Virus record (IMG/VR): IMGVR_UViG_2671180568_000004
Strand: one strand, 5' to 3'
DNA from: a virus
Taxonomy: Duplodnaviria; Heunggongvirae; Uroviricota; Caudoviricetes
Length of the DNA: 54,958 bases
The stretch's first letter is position 1. Each line of letters begins with the position of its first letter. The notes beneath the pieces were generated by a model that saw only the letters and a list, made by a program, of their open reading frames with translations, ran no database searches and was not told the origin of the DNA. Positions 29,272 to 50,427 of the stretch are shown in pieces. A program made the translations under genes and the position numbers.

Positions 29272-32200
29272 TTATGATGATGCCGGTGCATTTATCTCCA
29301 GCACCAGGCTGCCGATATCGACGCCATACGCTGCATTTTTGGTAATATCCGTCAGCGTCAGCGCATTCAGCCCCAGTGTCAGACTGTCTTTTATGACCTG
29401 GAATGCCGGGCCAGCCACTCCATTCAGTTTCGGAGTAACCGTGGCACTGCCGGCGGTGAACACCAGCTCCAGCGTCTGCCAGTCGTTACTGTAATTCCCG
29501 AACTCGCCCAACTTTGTGTTTCCGGCTTTCTTGTGATGCATCAGATTCAGTTTGCCGTCTGTGGTCTGGGTGAAGAACGACATCAGGAACGGGTTACCAG
29601 TCCCGGTCATCGCCACGACGTCAGGTAACGCTACATCGGTATACAGATAAATTCCCAGACCGAACTGGTTGTTGGTCAGTGCGCCTGACAGTCGAAACTT
29701 ACAGCTCAGTCTGCCACCCCGTGTCAGCAGGGAGACTGCGTCATCCACCGGATGCATCAGGGACCAGGTTTTATTGCTCTGCTTGGTAACCTTAAACACA
29801 CCATCTTCCAGCGCAACACTGCCGCCGGTGATGGTCCAGCCCTGCGCAGCAGCCTCTCCGGCTGTCGGCAGCAGGGAGACTGTACGAACGGATGTGTCAC
29901 CATCAGACGGCCCCGATGGNNNNNNNNNNCGTCAGCGCATTCAGCCCCAGTGTCAGACTGTCTTTTATGACCTGGAATGCCGGGCCAGCCACTCCATTCA
30001 GTTTCGGAGTAACCGTGGCACTGCCGGCGGTGAACACCAGCTCCAGCGTCTGCCAGTCGTTACTGTAATTCCCGAACTCGCCCAACTTTGTGTTTCCGGC
30101 TTTCTTGTGATGCATCAGATTCAGTTTGCCGTCTGTGGTCTGGGTGAAGAACGACATCAGGAACGGGTTACCAGTCCCGGTCATCGCCACGACGTCAGGT
30201 AACGCTACATCGGTATACAGATAAATTCCCAGACCGAACTGGTTGTTGGTCAGTGCGCCTGACAGTCGAAACTTACAGCTCAGTCTGCCACCCCGTGTCA
30301 GCAGGGAGACTGCGTCATCCACCGGATGCATCAGGGACCAGGTTTTATTGCTCTGCTTGGTAACCTTAAACACACCATCTTCCAGCGCAACACTGCCGCC
30401 GGTGATGGTCCAGCCCTGCGCAGCAGCCTCTCCGGCTGTCGGCAGCAGGGAGACTGTACGAACGGATGTGTCACCATCAGACGGCCCCGATGGCGTGTCG
30501 CCGCCGGGTGAGGGTTTAATCTCCGGTGCGGTACCGCTGATGAAGGCGCTGGTTCGACCAACTGCGTTCAGAATAGCGGTTGCCAGGCGATCCGAAATAA
30601 TGCCCCTGCGCGCCCATGAACTGAAATGTGTCGGACGATTTGACGATACCCAATTACCATTACTACGGGATAGCGCGCCGTAATAACCTGCATCAGCAAT
30701 ATCCGGGTCTTCTGCCGGTAAGTTGGTGGGCGTGTTGTTGCCGTTACCGTCGGTCATGAACGGCACAAAGAAAACGTTGTCGCTCTCCCTGTTTTTGTAC
30801 GCGCCGTAGACGGAGTCATACTGTGTGCCGTATGTGTTTTTCCAGTAATACGTCGTGTCGCCACAAATCCACGGTACAACTGCAGCACTGCCGCCATGGC
30901 ACTGCGCGTTAAATCCGGAAAGGTCAGTACGGAACTGCTTCAGCATGGCCGTGAACAGGTCCGGTTGCTGTGCGTAGGTGGCAGCGCTCATGTCAAATTC
31001 GCCCTGCATCCAGCACACCGCCAGCAACACATTTTTCGGGTTCTTCTGTAATGCNNNNNNNNNNGAGGGTTTAATCTCCGGTGCGGTACCGCTGATGAAG
31101 GCGCTGGTTCGACCAACTGCGTTCAGAATAGCGGTTGCCAGGCGATCCGAAATAATGCCCCTGCGCGCCCATGAACTGAAATGTGTCGGACGATTTGACG
31201 ATACCCAATTACCATTACTACGGGATAGCGCGCCGTAATAACCTGCATCAGCAATATCCGGGTCTTCTGCCGGTAAGTTGGTGGGCGTGTTGTTGCCGTT
31301 ACCGTCGGTCATGAACGGCACAAAGAAAACGTTGTCGCTCTCCCTGTTTTTGTACGCGCCGTAGACGGAGTCATACTGTGTGCCGTATGTGTTTTTCCAG
31401 TAATACGTCGTGTCGCCACAAATCCACGGTACAACTGCAGCACTGCCGCCATGGCACTGCGCGTTAAATCCGGAAAGGTCAGTACGGAACTGCTTCAGCA
31501 TGGCCGTGAACAGGTCCGGTTGCTGTGCGTAGGTGGCAGCGCTCATGTCAAATTCGCCCTGCATCCAGCACACCGCCAGCAACACATTTTTCGGGTTCTT
31601 CTGTAATGCCGCTTTGGTGCGTGCGATCAGGTCCTGATATAACGGTTTACCCACACCCCAGCGTGCCGAATCCTGGCTGGCCCCCGTGTCCGCACTGAAT
31701 GTCCCCTCCGCGCCCTGGGTGAATGCCGAACCACCACGACAGCATGGTACCAGCAGGATCCCCGCGTTATTCGGGATATACGGAAGCAGTTTTTTGGCAA
31801 TATGTAAGCCCTGGCCGACACAGCCGTACTGCCCTTTGCTCAGGTCTGCCTTCGGATGATTCAGTGCGCTCATATCCTGAACATCATGCAGGCAGTGGTC
31901 TGCCGGAATGATGTCGTTAAATGCGCATGCTTTACCACCGGGAGTCACTGTGTTGCGACGGGCCAGTTGCTTAATGCGTGGGTGGGGCGCATCGTAAGAA
32001 TCCGGAAGCGGAAGCCCTTCACCGTAAGCCATGGCATTGGATTGCCCGGCCAGTACGATGACGTAGTACCACTCCGGCTCAGTTGCACCACTGACGACCA
32101 CATCACCTTCTGCTGCAATCGCCTGCATCAGGGTATAAGGGGTTATGGCCACCGGACTACCAAACGGCTGCCAGCCCTCTTTCATTTTATGTGTCAGCTT

Positions 32201-32272
32201 TTCCGCAAGATCTGACGGCGACGCCGCCCTGACAACATCATAGTGTTTAAATGCCATGGTTCTTTCCACCAT
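29272..32272 (-). CDS. prophage sialate O-acetylesterase-like protein (NanS-p-like); coordinates inflated by two scaffold duplications
   Basis: N-terminal MAFKHYDVVRAASPSDLAEKL...; esterase block VLAGQSNAMAYGEG; real length about 623 aa after collapsing the duplicated blocks; likely start ATG at 32257. Confidence 0.6.
29920..29929. other. N10 scaffold gap; 29356..29919 repeated verbatim at 29930..30493
   Basis: read directly. Confidence 0.9.
31055..31064. other. N10 scaffold gap; 30510..31054 repeated verbatim at 31065..31609
   Basis: read directly. Confidence 0.9.
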
Positions 32273-32517
32273 CTGAAAAATGATTCTTTAAAATACCTGA
32301 CATGTAATACAGAAAAAACACAAAACCATACCTTAAATAAAAACCTCATCATCAAGCAGATATGCATGGATAAACTACAAGACGAGATATAAACCACCCT
32401 GCATTTAAATAAACAATAAACAACATCAGAAAAATAATTCTGCTCTATGGTTTACAATCAAAAATATCATTTATACTTTTCAGAACATCACCAGCAAGGC
32501 ATAAACAAGGAAACTAA

Positions 32518-32853
32518 ATGAAGTGGATTGTGATTGATACAGTTATCCAGCCATCATGCGGAATATCTTTTTCAGTCATATGGAGTAAAATAAAATTAAT
32601 AATCTGGTATCAATCGGATGCTTTCTTACCTCCTGAAAGTATATTTACACTGACTCACACAGGCATCATGCTCAATAACAAAGTGCTACCTGTAACCATT
32701 TACAACGTAGTACCATTCAATAAAACATTATGGAATTTAATCAAAAACAGCCAGGAATGCCCTACAAATACAGATAACGTATTGAATGAATGCTTTAATA
32801 ACCGTTGCACTCTGCAAATATGTCCTTATGGGCTAAAACAACAAAGTCCATAA
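32518..32853 (+). CDS. hypothetical Cys-rich protein (111 aa) in an AT-rich island
   Basis: ATG with AAGGAAA RBS; candidate promoter TTTACA-15nt-TATACT about 50 nt upstream; opposite strand to the late operon; 7 Cys. Confidence 0.4.
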
Positions 32854-32888
32854 GCAGTTTACTCACATCTGACAAAATCAATATAAAC

Positions 32889-33069
32889 AGCCCCTCCGGA
32901 GAGGGGCTGGAGAGTGGCGCTATGTGCCATTGCATGGTGCCGGGTGCCTCCCGGTGAATTCAGTACCAGCACCTGAATCCGCGATTATCCCATATACCTA
33001 CTCGCTGATTACCCCTCCGCACAGGGGGATTCACCATGCGAAATTTTTTAACAAACTTCCCGCCGGCCA
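32889..33069. repeat. copy A of a ~180-bp element (hairpin AGCCCCTCCGGAGAGGGGCT plus conserved blocks)
   Basis: shares hairpin, GCATGGTGCC.GG.GCCTCCCGGT.AATTCAG, GGGGGATTCACCATGCGA and TTTTAACAAA...GCCAGACAAT.ATC with copy B. Confidence 0.7.
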
Positions 33070-33341
33070 GACAATAATCGCCAGCCTGAATTATGAGCAA
33101 CGTGGCATTTTACGGGAAAACTGTTTTCTGCAGTAAAAAGGCCCGCCGGAGCGAGCCTGGAAGGATAGCGGTCATGTGATGCCGGTTTCCCGGTAACTCA
33201 GCATCGGTATCTGAGTCAACGTTTTCTCTACTGGGTCATTTCCGATACGTTCCGCCTTCCGGCAGACTTTCATCACGTCAGAAAATATAGCACCCTGAGT
33301 AACAGGACAGTACTCAGAATTCAGGAAACTGTGACACATCC

Positions 33342-33539
33342 TGCACAGAAAAGCCCCTCCGGAGAGGGGCTGAAGTATAGCCTAATTTCTGTCTGTCGCA
33401 TGGTGCCAGGGGCCTCCCGGTAAATTCAGCCTGTCTACTGAATTTGCATGTTCTCTGGATCATACACTTTGCCAGATGCCCCGCCGCTGAGGGGGATTCA
33501 CCATGCGATGTAATTTTTAACAAATTCTCCGGCAGCCAG
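33342..33539. repeat. copy B of the same element, same orientation
   Basis: see copy A. Confidence 0.7.
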
Positions 33540-33739
33540 ACAATCATCAAGCTGTGGAATTGTGAGGTATTTAAAAATTTCAACGGGTAACTGATACCCT
33601 GCTAATCGCCTGATGCTTTCTTTTTCAGCAACGGGAAAGCAACAACCACACACCCGCCACCAAAACACCATCAGACAGCACCGACATTATCCGGCTGCTG
33701 AAGTCCACCATCACCACCAGAAACAACAGGAGTGCAACC

Positions 33740-33786
33740 ACAGCTGCTTAGAAGGCAATTGCTCTGTCCGGCTGAGCTAACAACGC
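33740..33786 (-). pseudogene. tRNA-Arg(UCU)-like 5' fragment (acceptor, D-arm and anticodon arm only)
   Basis: GCGTTGTTAGCTCAGCCGGACAGAGCAATTGCCTTCTAAGCAGCTG resembles argU up to the anticodon loop; no canonical T-arm or 3' acceptor strand. Confidence 0.35.
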
Positions 33787-33799
33787 ATGATGCAGATAA

Positions 33800-33876
33800 T
33801 GGACCGCCATCGGGGACTTGAACCCCGCGCAGCCAGCTTCGAAGGCTGGCGCTCTATCCCGATGAGCTAATGGCGG
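33800..33876 (-). tRNA. tRNA-Arg (anticodon UCG)
   Basis: cloverleaf by eye: acceptor CCGCCAT/ATGGCGG, D-arm TAGCTCATCGGGATAGAGC, anticodon loop CTTCGAA, T-arm GGGGTTCAAGTCCCC, CCA. Confidence 0.75.
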
Positions 33877-33883
33877 TATGTGA

Positions 33884-33959
33884 TGGTGGCCCTTGCTGGA
33901 TTTGAACCAGCGACCTGGCGATTATGAGTCGCTCGCTCTCACCACTGAGCTAAAGGGCC
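33884..33959 (-). tRNA. tRNA-Ile2/Met-type (anticodon CAU), ileX/ileZ-like
   Basis: GGCCCTTTAGCTCAGTGGTGAGAGCGAGCGACTCATAATCGCCAGGTCGCTGGTTCAAATCCAGCAAGGGCCACCA; near-identical in architecture to E. coli ileX as recalled. Confidence 0.85.
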
Positions 33960-34008
33960 GGGAGCAGAATAATAATGGTGCGTAATTAATTCTGCAATCT
34001 CATCCGTT

Positions 34009-35058
34009 TCAAACGATTAAATCCTGAACTTCCCTGACTGTCTGCTCAAAACGTCCGGTCTCCAGCTCAACACCAATCGCACGACGCCCCAGTGCCATCG
34101 CCGCTTTTACCGTTGAACCCGACCCCATGAAAAAATCCGCAACCAGATCACCAGGACGACTACTTGCGCTGATTATCTGCTGCAGCATTTCTGCCGGTTT
34201 TTCGCACGGATGTTTCCCTGGATAGTACTGCACTGGTTTATACGTCCACACATCGGTGTACGGCACCTGCACCGTCACACCGAAATACCGCCGCAAATTT
34301 TTATATTCACTCAGCAGTTCCATATACTGCCGGTTCAGCTCACTGTATGTGCTGACCAGCTGGTGGTGTGGCTTTTCCAGTTCCCCGCGCTGATGTTTCT
34401 CTTCTGCCACCCGGGCAAACAGCGACTGTAATTTCAGATAATCGCTTTCATTCGGCAACTGCCACTGACCGGCACTGAACCAGTGCGACACCATGTTTTT
34501 CTTTCCTGTGGCATCTGCAATCTGTTTTGCCGTTATCCCCAGGGCTGCGCGCGCATCACGAAAGTAAGAAATCAGCGGGGCCATCACATGCTGTTTCAGT
34601 GCACTGCCCTTCGCCGCATACCCGGCATCTTTCGGACGATACGGCCCCTGATAATGTTCCGCGAACAGAATGCGCTCTGTGGCGGGGAAATACGCCCGCA
34701 GGCTTTCCTTGTTGCATCCGTTCCAGCGTCCGGACGGCTTCGCCCAGATAATATGGTTCAGCACACTGAAGCGTTCACGCATCATGATTTCGATATCAGA
34801 TGCCAGGCGATGACCACAGAACAGGTAAAGACTTCCGGCAGGTTTCAGCACCCGCCAGAACTGCGCCAGACACTGGTCCAGCCACTTCAGGTAATCATCG
34901 TCGCCCTTCCACTGGTTATCCCAGCCCTCAGGCTTCACTTTAAAGTACGGCGGGTCCGTGACTATCAGGTCAACAGAATTTTCGGGTAACGACCGGATAA
35001 ATTCCAGGCAGTCGGCGTTGATTAACTCACAACTGGATATTTTTACAGTATTAAGCAT
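34009..35058 (-). CDS. DNA N6-adenine methyltransferase (Dam-like orphan)
   Basis: 349 aa; motif IV DPPY (VTDPPYF); C-terminal SAM-binding FFMGSGST. Confidence 0.85.
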   Translation of the reverse strand: MLNTVKISSCELINADCLEFIRSLPENSVDLIVTDPPYFKVKPEGWDNQWKGDDDYLKWLDQCLAQFWRVLKPAGSLYLFCGHRLASDIEIMMRERFSVLNHIIWAKPSGRWNGCNKESLRAYFPATERILFAEHYQGPYRPKDAGYAAKGSALKQHVMAPLISYFRDARAALGITAKQIADATGKKNMVSHWFSAGQWQLPNESDYLKLQSLFARVAEEKHQRGELEKPHHQLVSTYSELNRQYMELLSEYKNLRRYFGVTVQVPYTDVWTYKPVQYYPGKHPCEKPAEMLQQIISASSRPGDLVADFFMGSGSTVKAAMALGRRAIGVELETGRFEQTVREVQDLIV

Positions 35059-35194
35059 GGATCATTAAGCCTGTCTCTGATAGGCTCATTCTGCTTTTGC
35101 GCAAAGCAGTGGGCCTGAGGTTTGCTTGTGATCCGGACGCATGAGCAGATGGCTGGTGGGTGCCCCTAACACCCACCAGCCGCCCATTTACCAC

Positions 35195-35222
35195 AAATAA
35201 AAAAGCCTTCACTGCGGAAGGC
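35195..35222 (-). terminator. rho-independent terminator
   Basis: hairpin GCCTTC-CGCAGT-GAAGGC followed by TTTTTTATTT on the minus strand. Confidence 0.6.
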
Positions 35223-35406
35223 GTCTGTAACAACCGAACTGATAGTCTGCCAGACCCGCCATAACCAGCTGAGTCAGTATTAACTGGCAGCGTTCGCGTG
35301 AAAGGTAAGTATTCTGCGCTATCTCCCCGACTGTCGCCGGGTCGGTAACGCTTAATTCATTAAACACCACTCTGGCGGTTTCTGTCATATCCTGCTGTTT
35401 TAGCAT
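35209..35406 (-). CDS. hypothetical small protein (65 aa) immediately after tR'
   Basis: ATG with AGGAAAAG RBS; stop inside the terminator stem. Confidence 0.4.
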   Translation of the reverse strand: MLKQQDMTETARVVFNELSVTDPATVGEIAQNTYLSRERCQLILTQLVMAGLADYQFGCYRRLPQ

Positions 35407-35525
35407 GTCTTTTCCTTTTCCGGTTAACGTGACACACCAATAACTCTTGTCGAAAAAGCCAGCAAGCTGAAAGACAGGTATTCACCGCCACCAGCGCGTT
35501 TACTGTACTGACGCGATTTCAGTCA

Positions 35526-35625
35526 TAAAAAACCCGCCAGGCGGCGGGGTGTAAAAAATCTTCTAACGTCAGGCATAAAACGCCCATCGTTAGAGCAAAT
35601 TTACCACAGATTCGGGAAAAATCAA
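35526..35625 (-). promoter_or_regulatory. late promoter pR'-like element and tR' terminator downstream of Q
   Basis: -35 TTGATT, 16-nt spacer, -10 TAAATT just after the Q stop; then hairpin CCCCGCCGCCTGGCGGG plus T6. Confidence 0.6.
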
Positions 35626-35630
35626 CAACA

Positions 35631-36452
35631 CTATCGCGTTACCCTCTTTAACTGCCGCTCCGCCCATGCCTCTTCAATGTCAAACCGAACCACCAACGTA
35701 TCGTAAAAGCGTTTCACTGATTTTTTCCACGTATCAAGCGTGATAGCACTCGTCACTTTGCGTATGGCATTAAATGCCTCCGTTGATGGTAGTCTTTCAC
35801 AGCCACGACCACCACAACGCTGGCAGTCTCTGATAACAGGCATACCACGTTTTACCGACTCTTCACGATGAATGGCGACACCACGCCCACGGCAATCCTT
35901 ACAGGCGGTGGAAACCTCACCCTTTCCGCCACACTCCGGACAGGCAACTTTTACCACCTCCCTGACTTTTTTCCATTCTTCCCAGTAAGACGGATACACA
36001 CCTTTCGTACACTTTGCCCATACCGGCGGCTTACCATCCGGATACTGGACCTTGTTTGTAAAAACCTCGCTTTCAATAAATTTTTTTCCGTGACAGCAGG
36101 AGCACTGTTTTTTGCTCGCCGCGCTACGGGCATAATCTTCAAACGCATACGAAGCCATAATACGCATCACTGCCGGTTTTATTTCTGCCGGGAGTTTTCT
36201 TAACGCCGCCACGCGATCACACCGACTGAGTGCATATTCTGTCAGCAATTCTGTTGCCCGCTCTCTGTCATTCATACTAATGCCCATTTTCCCAAGGAAC
36301 GCAGAAAACCCCATCTCAGCCCGATTCTGTGTCATGCCCTGCGCGGCCATCACATCAGTGATACTCAGCGCATCTTTCGACGTTGAGGCCGATGCATCAG
36401 TCAGGCCGGGGGATTTTGGGGAGTAGTATTTCGGTAAATCTTCCAGTTTCAT
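35631..36452 (-). CDS. Q: late antiterminator Q (Cys-rich, zinc-binding type)
   Basis: 273 aa; multiple CxxC pairs; sits between rusA and the pR'/tR' element. Confidence 0.75.
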   Translation of the reverse strand: MKLEDLPKYYSPKSPGLTDASASTSKDALSITDVMAAQGMTQNRAEMGFSAFLGKMGISMNDRERATELLTEYALSRCDRVAALRKLPAEIKPAVMRIMASYAFEDYARSAASKKQCSCCHGKKFIESEVFTNKVQYPDGKPPVWAKCTKGVYPSYWEEWKKVREVVKVACPECGGKGEVSTACKDCRGRGVAIHREESVKRGMPVIRDCQRCGGRGCERLPSTEAFNAIRKVTSAITLDTWKKSVKRFYDTLVVRFDIEEAWAERQLKRVTR

Positions 36453-36829
36453 TTTTTGACCTGCTCTTCATGCATTATGGGGTAAATCTTCACCCCCATA
36501 CGTCCACCAGATACTGGCTGACCACGAACGATATTGATTTCATCAAACTGCTCATCGTCCATTAACACTCCCGCATGCGTCAGCGCATCCAGCGGTGCTT
36601 TCAGGATATTGTCCAGGTCGCGACGACGCTTATCCGGTGGCTCTGCAATCACCTTTATCGCCAGCCTTCCGGACAGGCTTAATTTCAGCCGCTGCTGGCG
36701 AACAATAAGCGCCACAGCCCGGCGATAACGCTTTCCCTCCTCCGAGATAAAATATGTGCTGCCACGGCGTCGCCAGTAAGTGTTCACCGTTGGCGGGTAA
36801 GGCAAAACAAATTCTATGCGTTCAGTCAT
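36449..36829 (-). CDS. rusA: Holliday junction resolvase RusA
   Basis: 126 aa; MTERIEFVLPYPPTVNTYWRRRG...DLDNILKAPLDALTHAGVLMDDEQ. Confidence 0.9.
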   Translation of the reverse strand: MTERIEFVLPYPPTVNTYWRRRGSTYFISEEGKRYRRAVALIVRQQRLKLSLSGRLAIKVIAEPPDKRRRDLDNILKAPLDALTHAGVLMDDEQFDEINIVRGQPVSGGRMGVKIYPIMHEEQVKK

Positions 36830-37885
36830 TTATGCTTTCCACTTCAGAACACCCGAATTTCTCGCGTGCATTAAAAAACGAATCAGCAACAACAGCTGGC
36901 TGCCGTGTTTTTCTTCAAAATCTTTTACCCCGGCGTGTAGTTCGCTATGGCATTTACGGCACAGCGGAATAACAAACAAATCATCAGCCTTTGTTCCCAT
37001 CCCTCCCAGTCCATGACCAATGATGTGATGCGGATCATCTGCCTGATTGCCACACGTCATGCATTTCTGCGTTTTTACCCAACGCGTGTATACAGGCATC
37101 TCTTCCCGTTGTGATTTCTGGCGCTGGAGATACTGAGCCGGTGACTCCGGATCAACGGCAATGCTGACCACCGTCTTTTCCTGTGGCGGGTTTTGCTGGT
37201 GAGCGTGAGGCAGCGGCGCAAGATTTTTTGTGCGCTGCTTCAGTATGCTGGTGGCGGTCTGCTCTCCCGGTACGATGTCGCTTTCACGGTACATTGAGCG
37301 GATTTTTTCCGCACGCAACCCCAGCGAACGACGTAATACCGCTTCCGGTAGCGCGTCCGCCACCTGATTGCGGACCGCCCACCAGGATAATTCAGCCAGC
37401 GATAATTCCCGTTCCTGCGAGCCATTCATTGCATGGCGTATGACGTCAATCATCCATGCAGACAGGTTTTGGTGAGCAAGTTGCCCGAGTGATTCGGAGG
37501 TCTGGTCGCGCAGTTGGTTGTCGCAGTGCCAGCACAACACCATTGCGCCGGTACCATAACGGTGAATGACGGTTTCACTGTGGTGATAATCGCCGTGTGG
37601 CCACTGGCAGGATTTAACATGGCGCAGTAACCAGTCAGACAATGCGCCAGCGCCACCAGCAGCACGAATCACTCGTTCGTCGCTGAAAAATGGCAGTAAT
37701 GATTTATCCTCCGCCAGCGGCTGGCGAACGGCAGGAACGACCCCGGACGGCAGATTACGCATGCTTTTCGGTTCCGGCTCCACCAGTACCCGGGTATTGT
37801 GGAATACCGGCATGGATTCACGGCCCGGCTTAACGATCACCAGCCCGAGTTCCGGTACCAGAACAGGTCGAAGTAATACCCGCAC
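36830..37885 (-). CDS. DUF968-like nin-region protein with C-terminal HNH-like Cys/His motif
   Basis: 351 aa; GTG start with GGAGGT RBS; CMTCGNQADDPHHI...CRKCHSELH. Confidence 0.65.
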   Translation of the reverse strand: MRVLLRPVLVPELGLVIVKPGRESMPVFHNTRVLVEPEPKSMRNLPSGVVPAVRQPLAEDKSLLPFFSDERVIRAAGGAGALSDWLLRHVKSCQWPHGDYHHSETVIHRYGTGAMVLCWHCDNQLRDQTSESLGQLAHQNLSAWMIDVIRHAMNGSQERELSLAELSWWAVRNQVADALPEAVLRRSLGLRAEKIRSMYRESDIVPGEQTATSILKQRTKNLAPLPHAHQQNPPQEKTVVSIAVDPESPAQYLQRQKSQREEMPVYTRWVKTQKCMTCGNQADDPHHIIGHGLGGMGTKADDLFVIPLCRKCHSELHAGVKDFEEKHGSQLLLLIRFLMHARNSGVLKWKA

Positions 37886-37886
37886 G

Positions 37887-38159
37887 TTACCTCCAGATGC
37901 GTTGCTGGAATGTGCGGGACGGACGCGGTGGGCGTTCAGAGTAAGGAAGCCTGACGGAGATTATCCAGTGACGATAATCGAGGCTGAGGGCTTTCTTAAT
38001 CTCGTATCCGCGTCTGCGGTAGTTATGAATTAGCCATTCGGCCTGTTCTTCAGTACATGGTGGGTGTTGGTACCAGTCGGTTTTAAATGCGTGTGAACGC
38101 CGCCCATGCCGGATGGCAAGGTCGGTATCAGAATTGTGAAATTTGGTTTTGTGCGCCAT
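37887..38159 (-). CDS. hypothetical nin-region protein (90 aa)
   Basis: ORF track; family uncertain. Confidence 0.45.
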   Translation of the reverse strand: MAHKTKFHNSDTDLAIRHGRRSHAFKTDWYQHPPCTEEQAEWLIHNYRRRGYEIKKALSLDYRHWIISVRLPYSERPPRPSRTFQQRIWR

Positions 38160-38229
38160 CTGTTTTCTCTGCTGGCGCAGCAGGTGTCAGGTGTTCAGGC
38201 TGACGTGCGAATTGTAAACCAGAATGCCA

Positions 38230-38258
38230 GAAAAAAACAAAACCCGCCGAAGCGGGTT
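38230..38258 (-). terminator. rho-independent terminator downstream of hok
   Basis: hairpin AACCCGC-TTCG-GCGGGTT followed by TTTTGTTTTTTT on the minus strand. Confidence 0.6.
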
Positions 38259-38326
38259 AAGTGCGGGTGCGTTGAGGATGCCTGACACATCAGAGGTGGC
38301 GAGGGATTTCTCCCCCGCCCGGTCTC

Positions 38327-38482
38327 TTACTCCTCAGGTTCGTAAGCTGTGAAGACAGCGACCTCCGTCTGGCCGGTTCGGATTCGTACCTCGCAGAGGT
38401 CTTTCCTCGTTACCAGTGCCGTCACTATGACGGTTAAACAGATGACGATCAGGGCGATTAGCATCGCCTTTTGCTGCTTCAT
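38327..38482 (-). CDS. hok: Hok/Gef-family type I toxin (51 aa)
   Basis: MKQQKAMLIALIVICLTVIVTALVTRKDLCEVRIRTGQTEVAVFTAYEPEE; in-frame upstream extension to 38539 may be a mok-like frame. Confidence 0.85.
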   Translation of the reverse strand: MKQQKAMLIALIVICLTVIVTALVTRKDLCEVRIRTGQTEVAVFTAYEPEE

Positions 38483-38773
38483 AGCCTGCTTCTCCTTGCC
38501 TTTCGGCACGTAAGAGGCTAACCTACGTGTGTAGAGCATAGATATGGCCTCAGATTAATGTTAAGCGTCTTGCCGGACGCGTAATGTTAACTGGGGCTTT
38601 TCTCTATCTGCCTTTTGGTGTTCATGCCTGAGACAGATAGCCTCAAGCACCCGCTGCAATTCTACTTAACTCTCCTTTTCCCGCAAACCGTTTTTATCCC
38701 CAGCGGCAAATCGAATACACCACCAGCGCCACCGCCATCGCAATTCCTACCGTTGTTAATGCTTCAGGCCAGC

Positions 38774-39676
38774 TCATTGATTCACCTCCTGCGGCGGTTC
38801 TGGTAGCGGCATCCAGTGTGACGGTTTCCACGACGCACCAGGAATTATCCACCCATCATTAGCGTCAGGATGCCCGGGGATGTAAGTAGCCCATTTCATT
38901 CGCCAGTCACCTTTCCTGTCAAACTCCACGGCAACAAGAACGGCTGTTTTGGTATTCGGCATTCGCTCACTACAGCTTATCCAACCATCCGGAGTTGCCG
39001 GAGAGTTGCCCGATAGTGCATTCTGCTCCAGTGATGCTTTTACAAACCACGCTGCCTGAACTATAACGCCATGAATCCAGCGCAAATCAGCATCGCGATC
39101 TTTCTTTTTCATCTTTTCGCCACTTAAGGCCTTGCTTATGTGGCTGCGTACCAGGTCTTCATGTAATTCCTTCGCCTCCTCAATGGTGAAACCACCAGGC
39201 AGAAGAGCCGGAGTTACCGGAGAGCTGGTTGACGCTTCCGGGATTTCCCGAAAATTATTGGTTGACGAATTCTTGCTTTCCCGAAAGTTTCCGGACTGAA
39301 GCATGGCGGTGCGGCAGGAGTTCCATATTTCGGCAGCAATATCGCGCTCGCTATCGGTTAATTTGTACGTGGAAACATAGCCAGAGAGCATTTCTACGTT
39401 TTCCGGAGTTGCTTCTTCCGGCACTACCGGCGCTGGCGGGGCGATGCGTCCAAGCAACTTATTTACCTCTTTCGCCATCGCGTCATATTTATCTAAATGG
39501 CGATTAGCTTCTAAGCAGACTCGGCGCATCTGATCTGAGTTAACTCGTTTAACTGGATCTGCTTCCAGCGATGCCAGCGCAATCCGTGCCAGTTCCATTT
39601 GTTCACCACGGGTAAGCCCGTTTTCAAGCGGATTTTTAATGAACAATTCAATACGTTCTTTGGTAATAGTGGTCAT
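38774..39676 (-). CDS. DUF551-like domain protein
   Basis: 300 aa; C-terminal WISCSERMPNTKTAVLVAVEF...WKPSHWMPLPEPP. Confidence 0.55.
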   Translation of the reverse strand: MTTITKERIELFIKNPLENGLTRGEQMELARIALASLEADPVKRVNSDQMRRVCLEANRHLDKYDAMAKEVNKLLGRIAPPAPVVPEEATPENVEMLSGYVSTYKLTDSERDIAAEIWNSCRTAMLQSGNFRESKNSSTNNFREIPEASTSSPVTPALLPGGFTIEEAKELHEDLVRSHISKALSGEKMKKKDRDADLRWIHGVIVQAAWFVKASLEQNALSGNSPATPDGWISCSERMPNTKTAVLVAVEFDRKGDWRMKWATYIPGHPDANDGWIIPGASWKPSHWMPLPEPPQEVNQ

Positions 39677-39686
39677 GTGTTACTCC

Positions 39687-39950
39687 TTAACCCGCAGTGC
39701 TTTCAACTGATGAGGGGAACAAAATCTTTTCATCAAACCCTGCATTCATATCATGAACAGCAACACACCAATCCATCGACGAACGATTATCAAGAGCCTC
39801 CATGATTTCATCCATGCGGCGCAGGTCATACAGGTAAATGCTTTTATCGCCAATGGTGTAAAAACCAATTTTTTTCGGTGATGGACAGCGATCAAGAACG
39901 TCCTGTAATTCGCTCAACCATGCTTGTTCTTTTTTTGTCAAAGTTGCCAT
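39687..39950 (-). CDS. hypothetical nin-region protein (87 aa)
   Basis: ATG with AAGGAGAG RBS embedded in a conserved junction sequence. Confidence 0.5.
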   Translation of the reverse strand: MATLTKKEQAWLSELQDVLDRCPSPKKIGFYTIGDKSIYLYDLRRMDEIMEALDNRSSMDWCVAVHDMNAGFDEKILFPSSVESTAG

Positions 39951-39951
39951 A

Positions 39952-40443
39952 TCACTCTCCTTTGATGCGAATGCCAGTGGTACTCATTCTCCTGATTTCC
40001 CAGAGCACACGAGGAACACCACCGTTTCCGACCGGATCGCGTTTACTCCGCAGGGCGACGCTTGATTCCGCCCAGCTTTTTCTTGGAGGAAGCTCTTTCA
40101 CACGAACAAAACCAGCTGCGCGGAGAGATGCTCCTGATTCATCTGCCTGGGTGTACGTAATACAACGTTGATAACCCATAGCCTTTGCTGCCCGCCAGAC
40201 AGCACCATAAAGCGCGCTGTTAGCGTTGCGTTCTCCTGTGGTACATGTGCGATTTACTTCAAGCGTTAATCCATCGTCCAAATGTCGTGCAACAGGTCTA
40301 CCGGCTGTCGCCACACCTATCAATTCTCCGGCATCATTTCTCAGACCAATGCTGAATTTATGCCCCACCGGGGGTTTATTGTGTCGGTGATGTCTGGATA
40401 TAAACGCCTTCGCAACACGAAGAGTAACCGGTGAAATTTGCAT
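39952..40443 (-). CDS. hypothetical protein with GNAT-like sequence pattern (163 aa)
   Basis: ATG (MQISPV) with AAGGAG RBS; ...GVATAGRPVARHLDDGLTLEVNR...YTQADESGASLRAAGF suggests an acetyltransferase-like fold (weak). Confidence 0.45.
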   Translation of the reverse strand: MQISPVTLRVAKAFISRHHRHNKPPVGHKFSIGLRNDAGELIGVATAGRPVARHLDDGLTLEVNRTCTTGERNANSALYGAVWRAAKAMGYQRCITYTQADESGASLRAAGFVRVKELPPRKSWAESSVALRSKRDPVGNGGVPRVLWEIRRMSTTGIRIKGE

Positions 40444-40445
40444 TC

Positions 40446-40805
40446 TCACTCTCCTTTGATGCCAATGTTTACAGACTGGCAAGCCTCTTTGAGCACCCAG
40501 TCAACAGCGTCTTTCCATGCTCCGGTTTCGACTGGCGGATTCTCACGCTTTACCTGTTCATAGAAACGCACTGCTTTAATCAATCCTTCTGGTGTCAGTG
40601 GCACAGGCGGGGCAGTGAATAACACCTGAATTTCATAGTTCGGTCCGTCGTTGCAATCCTCTTTTGTCGGTACATATTTCCAGTCACCAACCCACTGCTT
40701 CCCCTGAAAGTCTGTAACGCCTTTTTTCACGTAGCGATATCGCCATGCCACTGGTTTTGCCTGCCCTGCCTTTTCATGCCCTTCCTGATAATTAATCTCG
40801 CTCAT
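40446..40805 (-). CDS. hypothetical nin-region protein (119 aa)
   Basis: ORF track; ends IGIKGE at the junction sequence. Confidence 0.5.
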   Translation of the reverse strand: MSEINYQEGHEKAGQAKPVAWRYRYVKKGVTDFQGKQWVGDWKYVPTKEDCNDGPNYEIQVLFTAPPVPLTPEGLIKAVRFYEQVKRENPPVETGAWKDAVDWVLKEACQSVNIGIKGE

Positions 40806-40970
40806 TCATCGCCCCACTCATCACAATATGCTTCGACCGGTGTTTTCCCTGCTTCATAATCATCACGCCATGCTTCAGCATCAGCGGCACTTCCACCGCG
40901 TAACTCTGCATAATCCATTAACAGTTCATGCCATTCTTCAAAACTGGCGTTATATTTAGTTGAACCAAAA

Positions 40971-41153
40971 TCAGCCATTTTGTTCTTCCTCTTCGTCTTT
41001 TATTTCGTGGTATGAGTAATTGCAGTAGTTAAAGAAAATATCTTTAGCTTCATCCTGTATTTCATCTGGTGTTGCATCATCATCCACTTCGAATTCATCC
41101 TCGAAATCTCCACCGGCTATTCCCGTTTCAATAATTATTTTGAATTTTCGCAT
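40971..41153 (-). CDS. hypothetical small acidic protein (60 aa)
   Basis: ORF track; a further 57-aa ORF (about 40803..40977, MADFGSTKYNASFEEW...) lies just downstream. Confidence 0.35.
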   Translation of the reverse strand: MRKFKIIIETGIAGGDFEDEFEVDDDATPDEIQDEAKDIFFNYCNYSYHEIKDEEEEQNG

Positions 41154-41281
41154 TTCACTACCGCCCTTTCGGACGGCCTCCTGATGTTCTGAGGGTGCAG
41201 GAATCCCTCCGGTTAAGGATTTAATAAAAATCGTTTCTGATTTAAATCTTCAGTATTTAGTTGTTAGTCGGTTTATAGCCT

Positions 41282-41593
41282 TTATGCTTCGGCCTTATTT
41301 CTCAGCCATACACAAACCGGGCCATCTTCGGTGTCATGTATTGAACCAATAAACCATCCATTGTCCTCTGGTCGTTCCGGTTCCCATGCAGAAATATCAG
41401 CATCACACGCATCAAGGTCAGCACATCCTTCATCTCTGAAGCAGAGGACGTATTGAAGATTATTTTCCTCCATCCAGGCGTTAAACTCTTCCGTTGAAAT
41501 ATATTCCCGACCGTCACAGAATTTTTCATATTCAGGATGCGTCCAGTAGCCATATTCATCACGTACTACTGGTATTTCTTTAATTTCATTCAT
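41282..41593 (-). CDS. hypothetical protein (103 aa)
   Basis: ORF track. Confidence 0.45.
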   Translation of the reverse strand: MNEIKEIPVVRDEYGYWTHPEYEKFCDGREYISTEEFNAWMEENNLQYVLCFRDEGCADLDACDADISAWEPERPEDNGWFIGSIHDTEDGPVCVWLRNKAEA

Positions 41594-41840
41594 TTCTGTT
41601 CTCCCACGTTTTCAGACTTTCACCACAGAACGGACAAAATGAAACCCGAACTGGTAATTTAGAAAATTCACCGGAACGCAACATCACAAAATCAGGACCG
41701 CGAGTTAAACTCTCATTCCAGATTTTGTATATCAGCAGACCTTTTCGCATCGTGTATTCAGCATCACGCTCAAGGGACTTTGCCAGTGCTGCACATGGTT
41801 CTATCTTGTTGCCATTAACCTGGCATTTTGATTCACTCAC
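41586..41840 (-). CDS. hypothetical zinc-ribbon-like protein (84 aa)
   Basis: GTG start with GGAGG RBS; CxxC...FCPFCGE. Confidence 0.45.
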   Translation of the reverse strand: MSESKCQVNGNKIEPCAALAKSLERDAEYTMRKGLLIYKIWNESLTRGPDFVMLRSGEFSKLPVRVSFCPFCGESLKTWENRNE

Positions 41841-42102
41841 CGCACCACCTCCTCAAAATTCCCCTGATAAAACGTAAGCGTACAGCCTGAACCGTCTGGT
41901 CAGAATCTGACGAATTAGACAAAGTGGTGTCCACCAAATAAGTAGTGGGAACCAAAGTGTCAGATATGCAGAAAAATGTGACTCCCGGCAGGCGAAAAGG
42001 CTGCCCTAATTATCCTCCCGAATTTAAACAGCAGCTCGTTGCTGCCTCCTGTGAACCCGGGATATCCATCTCAAAACTTGCTCTTGAAAATGGCATTAAC
42101 GC

Positions 42103-42112
42103 NNNNNNNNNN
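42103..42112. other. N10 scaffold gap; 41874..42102 repeated verbatim at 42113..42341 (restart exactly at the IS end)
   Basis: read directly. Confidence 0.9.
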
Positions 42113-45622: not shown

Positions 45623-45632
45623 NNNNNNNNNN
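45623..45632. other. N10 scaffold gap; sequence after the gap restarts at the equivalent of 43738
   Basis: read directly. Confidence 0.9.
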
Positions 45633-50369: not shown

Positions 50370-50427
50370 TTTCTGGTGACGTTTGGCGGTATCAGTTTTA
50401 CTCCGTGACTGCTCTGCCGCCCTTTTT
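50370..50427 (+). ncRNA. dicF: DicF small RNA (ftsZ-targeting), with intrinsic terminator
   Basis: TTTCTGGTGACGTTTGGCGGTATCAGTTTTACTCCGTGACTGCTCUGCCGCCC plus T-run matches E. coli DicF as recalled; about 170 nt upstream of dicB as in Qin. Confidence 0.85.

Follow-up and report, generated by a model that had tools for sequence, protein, structure and literature searches.

A putative tandem array of three STnc100-related small RNA genes in the late region of a lambdoid prophage

Organization of the locus

The window analysed here is the whole viral DNA stretch of 54,958 nucleotides. On its minus strand it carries, in this order, RusA, the Q antiterminator, an N6/N4 methylase, tRNA(CAT), tRNA-Arg, a DUF3927 gene and three related repeat units designated B, C and A. 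Copy A is followed by a convergent IraM-like gene on the plus strand and then by a SASA esterase. The Q antiterminator, the N6/N4 methylase, DUF3927 and the SASA esterase were recognized by Pfam matches. Judged from its sequence, the locus belongs to the late genes of a lambdoid prophage, and the repeats occupy the position at which Stx phages carry stx.

The tRNA genes (anticodons CAT and TCG, 33800-33959, minus strand) immediately precede the array, an arrangement shared with Stx phages; at an identical locus RefSeq lists the CAT tRNA as tRNA-Ile and leaves tRNA-Arg without annotation. The convergent gene is an open reading frame of 111 amino acids (32518-32853, plus strand) whose product is a homolog of the IraM anti-adaptor (NCBIfam NF007393, 162 bits, cutoff 121), and RefSeq gives the name IraM to the identical protein. 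IraM inhibits RssB and thereby stabilises RpoS. Its gene sits where many homologous loci have a convergent anti-sRNA of the AgvB/AsxR type. Elsewhere in the window Rfam models matched the sok antitoxin RNA (38477-38652, minus strand, 117 bits; the matching RefSeq locus carries an annotated hokD) and DicF (50371-50422, plus strand, 76.7 bits), both of which are typical cargo of lambdoid/Qin-type prophages.

The window contains four runs of exactly 10 N (29920-29929, 31055-31064, 42103-42112 and 45623-45632) and therefore consists of contigs joined into a scaffold. Near the first two of these runs part of the SASA-esterase gene occurs twice, with open reading frames that recur at an offset of 555 nt (e.g. 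30516..30653 and 31071..31208); the duplication seems to be an artefact of assembly and not a biological feature. The sRNA array lies within one unbroken piece, 31065-42102.

Identification of the repeats as STnc100-family units

An earlier note, made from the letters of the sequence, had described two diverged copies of an element of ~180 bp in the same orientation. Both are present as direct repeats of ~190 bp each, found by the repeat search and by the Rfam scan, and they share four co-linear blocks of 83-93% identity:

32886 and 33349: block D1, AACAGCCCCTCCGGAGAGGGGCTGGAG, direct repeat A/B, 93% identity
32932 and 33398: block D3, GCATGGTGCC..AATTCAG, direct repeat A/B, 91% identity
33012 and 33479: block D4, ..GGGGGATTCACCATGCGA, direct repeat A/B, 90% identity
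33045 and 33514: block D2, direct repeat A/B, 83% identity

The hairpin block D1 has a further match of 74% at 33136-33162. The whole window was scanned with the Rfam covariance models at the gathering threshold (47 bits for RF02076), and the interval 32500-34100 then permissively (E<=1), which gave the following units:

32879..33067, minus strand: copy A, STnc100-family sRNA gene (RF02076, 132.5 bits, E 1.7e-30, model positions 1-206; cmscan)
33343..33536, minus strand: copy B, STnc100-family sRNA gene (RF02076, 138 bits, E 6.6e-32, model positions 1-206; cmscan)
33132..33307, minus strand: copy C, strongly diverged third member (RF02076, 30 bits, E 2.9e-4, model positions 1-206; permissive cmscan)

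Copies A and B are members of Rfam family RF02076 (STnc100). Their resemblance is far above chance, since one covariance model recognizes both with E values of ~1e-29 to 1e-32. The Rfam/Infernal scan had been suggested in the earlier note, and the two full-length matches well above threshold place the element in a known family that the note had not recognized; it had also overlooked copy C between the two. Copy C, whose 30 bits fall short of the gathering score (47), is a relative of RF02076 and not a formal member. Promoter included, each unit measures ~190 bp; the RNA predicted from it has a length of about 160-165 nt.

Strand and terminators

The functional strand of the three units is minus. 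Each of them ends, on this strand, in a GC-rich hairpin followed by a T-tract, and the terminator scan found T-tracts 3′ of all three hairpins on the minus strand only:

32888..32909, minus strand: terminator of copy A (CAGCCCCTCTCCGGAGGGGCTG, then GTTTATATT), terminator scan, 9 pairs, 7 of them GC
33352..33371, minus strand: terminator of copy B (AGCCCCTCTCCGGAGGGGCT, then TTTTCTGTG), terminator scan and Rfam consensus structure
33139..33158, minus strand: terminator of copy C (AGGCTCGCTCCGGCGGGCCT, then TTTTTACTG), terminator scan

The first of these is the perfect hairpin that had been placed at the start of each copy. The hairpin is real, but it is a Rho-independent terminator at the 3′ end; no strand had been assigned, and the 3′ terminator was thus taken for the beginning of the element. 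The U-tail of copy A is poor (GUUUAUAUU).

Folding energy does not separate the strands, as the plus-strand folds (-68.2 kcal/mol for A and -66.8 kcal/mol for B) are nearly as stable as those of the minus strand (-69.6 and -68.1 kcal/mol). The assignment is based on the T-tracts, the G.U pairs, the promoter block and the published transcripts of homologs. G.U pairs are frequent among the homologs, e.g. in 41 of 46 sequences at alignment columns 147/172, and the plus strand would have A/C mismatches at such positions.

Secondary structure and covariation

The complementary arms GCATGGTG and CACCATGC, pointed out earlier as reverse complements about 80 nt apart, do pair, at a spacing of 92-93 nt. 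In the Rfam consensus structure they form the closing helix P1 of a multi-branched RNA, with GCAUGGUG and CACCAUGC as the RNA arms:

33032..33039, minus strand: 5′ arm of P1 in copy A, RNA GCAUGGUG, pairs with 32932-32939, RNA CACCAUGC (Rfam structure line, minimum free energy fold)
33499..33506, minus strand: 5′ arm of P1 in copy B, pairs with 33398-33405 (Rfam structure, minimum free energy fold)

The minimum free energy (MFE) structure of 32880-33041 (minus strand, copy A) is the family fold (z = -3.0), and so is that of copy B (z = -3.25, with none of 200 shuffled sequences equally stable).

Homologs were collected by a two-block pattern scan of viral contigs, which gave 120 loci, and nhmmer found 157 copies therein. 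The alignment comprised 46 non-redundant representatives (<97% similarity); the search pattern fixed 21 scaffold bases, which inflates the scaffold conservation in this set. RNAalifold, when run on the untrimmed alignment, chose another register for the closing helix, and the Rfam-type structure was therefore tested explicitly. It consisted of P1, P2, P4, P5 and the terminator; the outermost Rfam pairs, with model positions 14-16, were left out as they probably belong to the promoter.

The proposed pairs form in 93.2% of cells, compared with 37-51% for slid partners, and 13 pairs are altered on both sides; none of 500 shuffles reached any of these measures. Double changes occur at five of the eight pairs of P4 and at seven of the eight pairs of the terminator helix. 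P2 and P5 hardly vary, so that covariation gives no test there. P1 is paired in 96.7% of cells and shows one double change from G-C to A-U and several G.U wobbles. The compensatory changes sought by the covariation analysis were thus found, and four more come from P1 when the lineages are compared (see below). A curated Rfam match, covariation and single-sequence folds agree with the earlier suggestion of a structured RNA with a closed domain. A kissing interaction between the loops of P2 (GUGC) and P5 (GCAC) was also considered and rejected as lacking covariation support, since many homologs have GAGC or CAGC in P2 while the loop of P5 is unchanged.

The third copy

Copy C, detected by nhmmer with E 1.6e-5, keeps helices P2, P4 and P5 and the terminator. 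Its remaining elements are located as follows:

33271-33278 and 33174-33181, minus strand: arms of P1 in copy C
33284-33292, minus strand: -10-like sequence TGCTATATT of copy C

P1 is nearly invariant in the set of 46 homologs, and it is the C-type lineage that settles its pairing. In comparison with A and B four of the eight P1 pairs of this lineage differ, all of them by double changes, and 97.5% of cells are paired; in loci L131 and L140 the helix reads AUGUGAUG/CAUCACAU. The copy C of the window itself has one C/A mismatch in P1, and P1 is missing from its MFE structure (-53.3 kcal/mol, vs -48.5 kcal/mol with P1 enforced). A C-type copy was found in 673 of the 5426 complete E. coli genomes (~12%), and RefSeq annotates no RNA there.

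Putative promoters and modular conservation

Upstream of the P1 arms of copies A and B, sequences resembling sigma-70 promoters can be recognized:

33045..33074, minus strand: putative sigma-70 promoter of copy A, -35 TTGTCT at 33074-33069, 18-nt spacer, extended -10 TGtTAAAAA at 33053-33045
33514..33543, minus strand: putative promoter of copy B, -35 TTGTCT at 33543-33538, 18-nt spacer, extended -10 TGtTAAAAA at 33522-33514

The motifs TTGnnT and TTTGTTAAAA, at 18-nt spacing, are nearly invariant in the 46 homologs. The 5′ end of the homolog PasD2 has been estimated by RNA-seq at position 741157 of NC_011601 (Pearl Mizrahi 2021, Table S6); in our alignment it is the G of GCAUGG, 7 nt past the aligned TAAAAA. 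From this 5′ end of one homolog and the conserved upstream block we infer the promoters and start sites of A and B, and read the beginning of the Rfam model as promoter: the first ~28 positions of RF02076 would be promoter sequence, and the RNAs would begin at the P1 arm. The predicted transcript of copy A runs from ~33039-33041 down to ~32880 and that of copy B from ~33506-33510 down to ~33345.

A consensus promoter scan returned no minus-strand promoter in the repeats. On the plus strand it showed TTAACA-16-GACAAT (9/12) at 33048-33075 and 33517-33544, which overlaps the AT-rich block of the putative minus-strand promoter. Such plus-strand sites are no commoner than in shuffled sequences; they might give rise to an antisense or divergent RNA, or simply reflect the AT-rich block.

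Conservation along the unit is strongly uneven. Mean pairwise identity in the 46 homologs is 93% for the P1/P2 arm and 94% for the P5/P1 arm, both partly inflated by the search pattern, 42% for the internal insert and 31% for the linker between P1 and the terminator, which falls into 16 unrelated types. Indels are many in the internal region and the linker. The linkers of the two family members are unrelated to each other:

32910..32931, minus strand: linker of copy A, RNA AAUGGCACAUAGCGCCACUCUC, between the 3′ arm of P1 and the terminator; candidate seed region
33372..33397, minus strand: linker of copy B, RNA GACAGACAGAAAUUAGGCUAUACUUC; candidate seed region

The proposed seed of PasD maps to the equivalent linker. 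Together with the hypervariability of this segment on a conserved scaffold, it makes the linker a candidate for the part of the RNA that probably carries the seed.

Relation to known sRNAs

Of the sRNA families annotated in enterobacteria, STnc100 is one of the most abundant. In EDL933, 11 STnc100 copies are transcribed and one of them (STnc100_4) has been verified by Northern blotting (PMC5331693). EcOnc27/sRNA103, an sRNA that binds Hfq, overlaps the copy located downstream of stx2B (PMC12711010; PMC7873438). STnc100 has also been found in outer-membrane vesicles, and the qPCR primers published for it match copy A exactly (PMC12370729). The literature on STnc100 itself contains no validated direct target.

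Copies A and B share with STnc100/EcOnc27 (sRNA103) the same helices, the terminator and the slot between the late promoter region and the SASA-esterase/lysis genes. Nucleotides 3-111 of copy A, i.e. the scaffold, are 99% identical to the copy of Stx2-converting phages, whereas the linker of the latter is unrelated to those of A and B. The loci differ in that stx is present in the Stx phage and absent here, where three copies stand in tandem, and in the convergent partner, which is an AgvB/AsxR-type anti-sRNA there and the IraM-like gene here.

PasD1 and PasD2 of EPEC E2348/69 (EHEC homolog EcOnc13) share with the copies described here the synteny, the promoter block, the GCAUGGUGAAUCC start, P4 and the general architecture. 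They are sub-threshold STnc100 matches (41 bits for PasD2 and 38 bits for PasD1), and structural homology of PasD and STnc100 has been reported (bioRxiv 10.64898/2026.05.13.724894). In EPEC prophages PasD occupies the same slot (Q .. DUF3927, sRNA, esterase/holin), and the array likewise lies downstream of Q and the DUF3927 gene and upstream of esterase/holin. Both PasD RNAs have been verified by Northern blotting and have RIL-seq targets, and the blots corroborate their Hfq-dependent stability according to the authors; support for the PasD1 seed is weak, the printed MEME E-values not being significant (PMC8550237). PasD differs in its own P5/P1 3′ region, in a longer linker with the proposed UUGUGAG seed and in the terminator. 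By alignment this seed is absent from all three copies of the array, whose linker and terminator are unrelated to those of PasD. In some homologs (L152, L210, L144, L146 and L156) the scaffold is that of a typical STnc100, but the linker is long and the terminator (CGGCTGCGCATGGCGCGGCCTTTTTTTT) is of the PasD type; these are apparent recombinants joining the two families.

The AgvB/AsxR anti-sRNAs, the "dyad" partners in EHEC prophages, come from the same lambdoid prophage region, but they are RNAs of ~60 nt encoded on the opposite strand and belong to different families (RF02702, RF02703). Neither model matched the window at the gathering score, nor the interval 32500-34100 at E<=1, whereas AgvB was detected beside STnc100 in phage 75/02, which served as a positive control. 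In this Stx phage STnc100 lies directly downstream of stxB, and an AgvB-type gene is convergent with it and abuts its terminator (cf. PMC7873438). Many homologous loci have, after the STnc100 terminator (alignment columns ~290-340), AAAAAAA and a second GC-rich hairpin (GCCCGCGC..GCGCGGGC), which in phage 75/02 (L245, 3666-3725, minus strand) is the end of the convergent AgvB-family RNA (56.6 bits); it represents the published sRNA "dyad" and does not occur in this window.

RNAs of the StxS/lambda 6S type are likewise encoded in the prophage late region and end at an intrinsic terminator through which Q-modified polymerase would continue; they begin at PR′ directly downstream of Q. The copies described here lie instead >2 kb downstream of Q, past the methylase and two tRNAs, and have promoter-like blocks of their own. 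StxS is mentioned in PMC7873438. As for IpeX, the sRNA of DLP12 in MG1655, cmscan at the gathering score gave no RF02076 match in the annotated DLP12 region.

Proposed function of the array

We interpret the region as a tandem array of three paralogous prophage-borne sRNA genes of the STnc100 family, placed on the minus strand in the orientation of the late genes and encoding Hfq-associated trans-acting RNAs; we assign this reading a probability of roughly 0.85. Each unit would comprise its own sigma-70-type promoter (-35 TTGTCT, extended -10 TGtTAAAAA), a conserved scaffold of ~125 nt that starts from GCAUGGUG and whose pairing with CACCAUGC would close a multi-branched domain (P2, variable insert, P4, P5), and a single-stranded, hypervariable linker (17-39 nt) that leads into a GC-rich Rho-independent terminator. 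Each RNA would most likely act as a base-pairing sRNA, in which stability and chaperone binding may come from the scaffold together with the U-tailed terminator, and the seed from the linker. With three unrelated linkers the copies may have different targets. Hfq dependence of these particular copies is suggested by their published relatives. The three terminators sit in the path of the late transcript and would therefore probably have a further effect, shielding the esterase and lysis genes downstream as long as there is no Q antitermination.

In a rival reading the elements act mainly in cis, as three stacked intrinsic terminators or insulators of the late operon. They would keep the genes for the esterase and for lysis silent in the lysogen, only Q-modified polymerase would pass them, and the RNAs would be by-products. 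It would account for three good late-strand terminators that separate Q and the tRNAs from those genes, in a slot conserved in other lambdoid prophages. A hairpin and a T-tract are, however, enough to terminate transcription, yet the 125-nt upstream scaffold is conserved, covaries and carries a promoter-like block, and members of the family, according to the literature on other copies, accumulate as discrete Hfq-bound RNAs. We consider a mainly cis-acting element unlikely. Cis and trans roles are compatible; the regulatory site that had been named among the early candidates is at most a secondary role, given by the three terminators in the path of the late transcript.

The distribution of the repeats bears on whether they could be a miniature mobile or repetitive palindromic element spread by transposition. 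A 701-nt query (32860-33560) matched 2862 of 5426 complete E. coli genomes, in up to 12 places per genome, and the element does contain a palindrome. The copies, however, are flanked by no terminal inverted repeats or target-site duplications, as a MITE- or REP-type element would be, and the sole inverted repeat is that of one terminator against another. They always occupy the same syntenic late-region slot of lambdoid prophages in the orientation of the late genes, so that copy number tracks the number of prophages plus local tandem duplication, and the same B-C-A triple recurs at 13 other loci in the viral contigs. Spread by transposition is thus highly improbable. The survey covered E. coli genomes and viral contigs; a 14-base pattern scan of genome contigs gave chance matches only, in unrelated phyla.

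Conserved small protein-coding genes are hardly credible here: open reading frames of 46-89 amino acids do lie over each copy and a RefSeq pseudogene ("hypothetical protein") spans part of copy A, but the longest frames are on opposite strands (32924..33136, plus strand, in A; 33314..33583, minus strand, in B), as had been noticed from the start, the homologs are rich in indels, and substitutions compensate helices. RefSeq annotates no RNA at the array.

Conclusions

The array is genuine and belongs to an already known family, for which location in prophages, multiplicity and the relation to PasD have been published; what is added here is small, namely the promoter content of the Rfam model, the modular pattern of the linker and a cryptic third paralog. 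An invariant scaffold with an interchangeable linker suggests where the seed lies, and a very diverged but structurally intact paralog of the C type slips past current annotation. As a tentative extension, to which we give somewhat less than even odds as a whole, the STnc100/PasD superfamily may be a modular sRNA chassis in which promoter, 125-nt scaffold and terminator flank a seed cassette exchanged by recombination between prophages, the B-C-A array being a three-seed cassette in the stx slot. If so, the C type would be a functional third subfamily, overlooked by Rfam and RefSeq and present in ~12% of complete E. coli genomes. These observations could be of use in work on the rewiring of host regulation by prophage sRNAs, in commensal as well as pathogenic E. 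coli.
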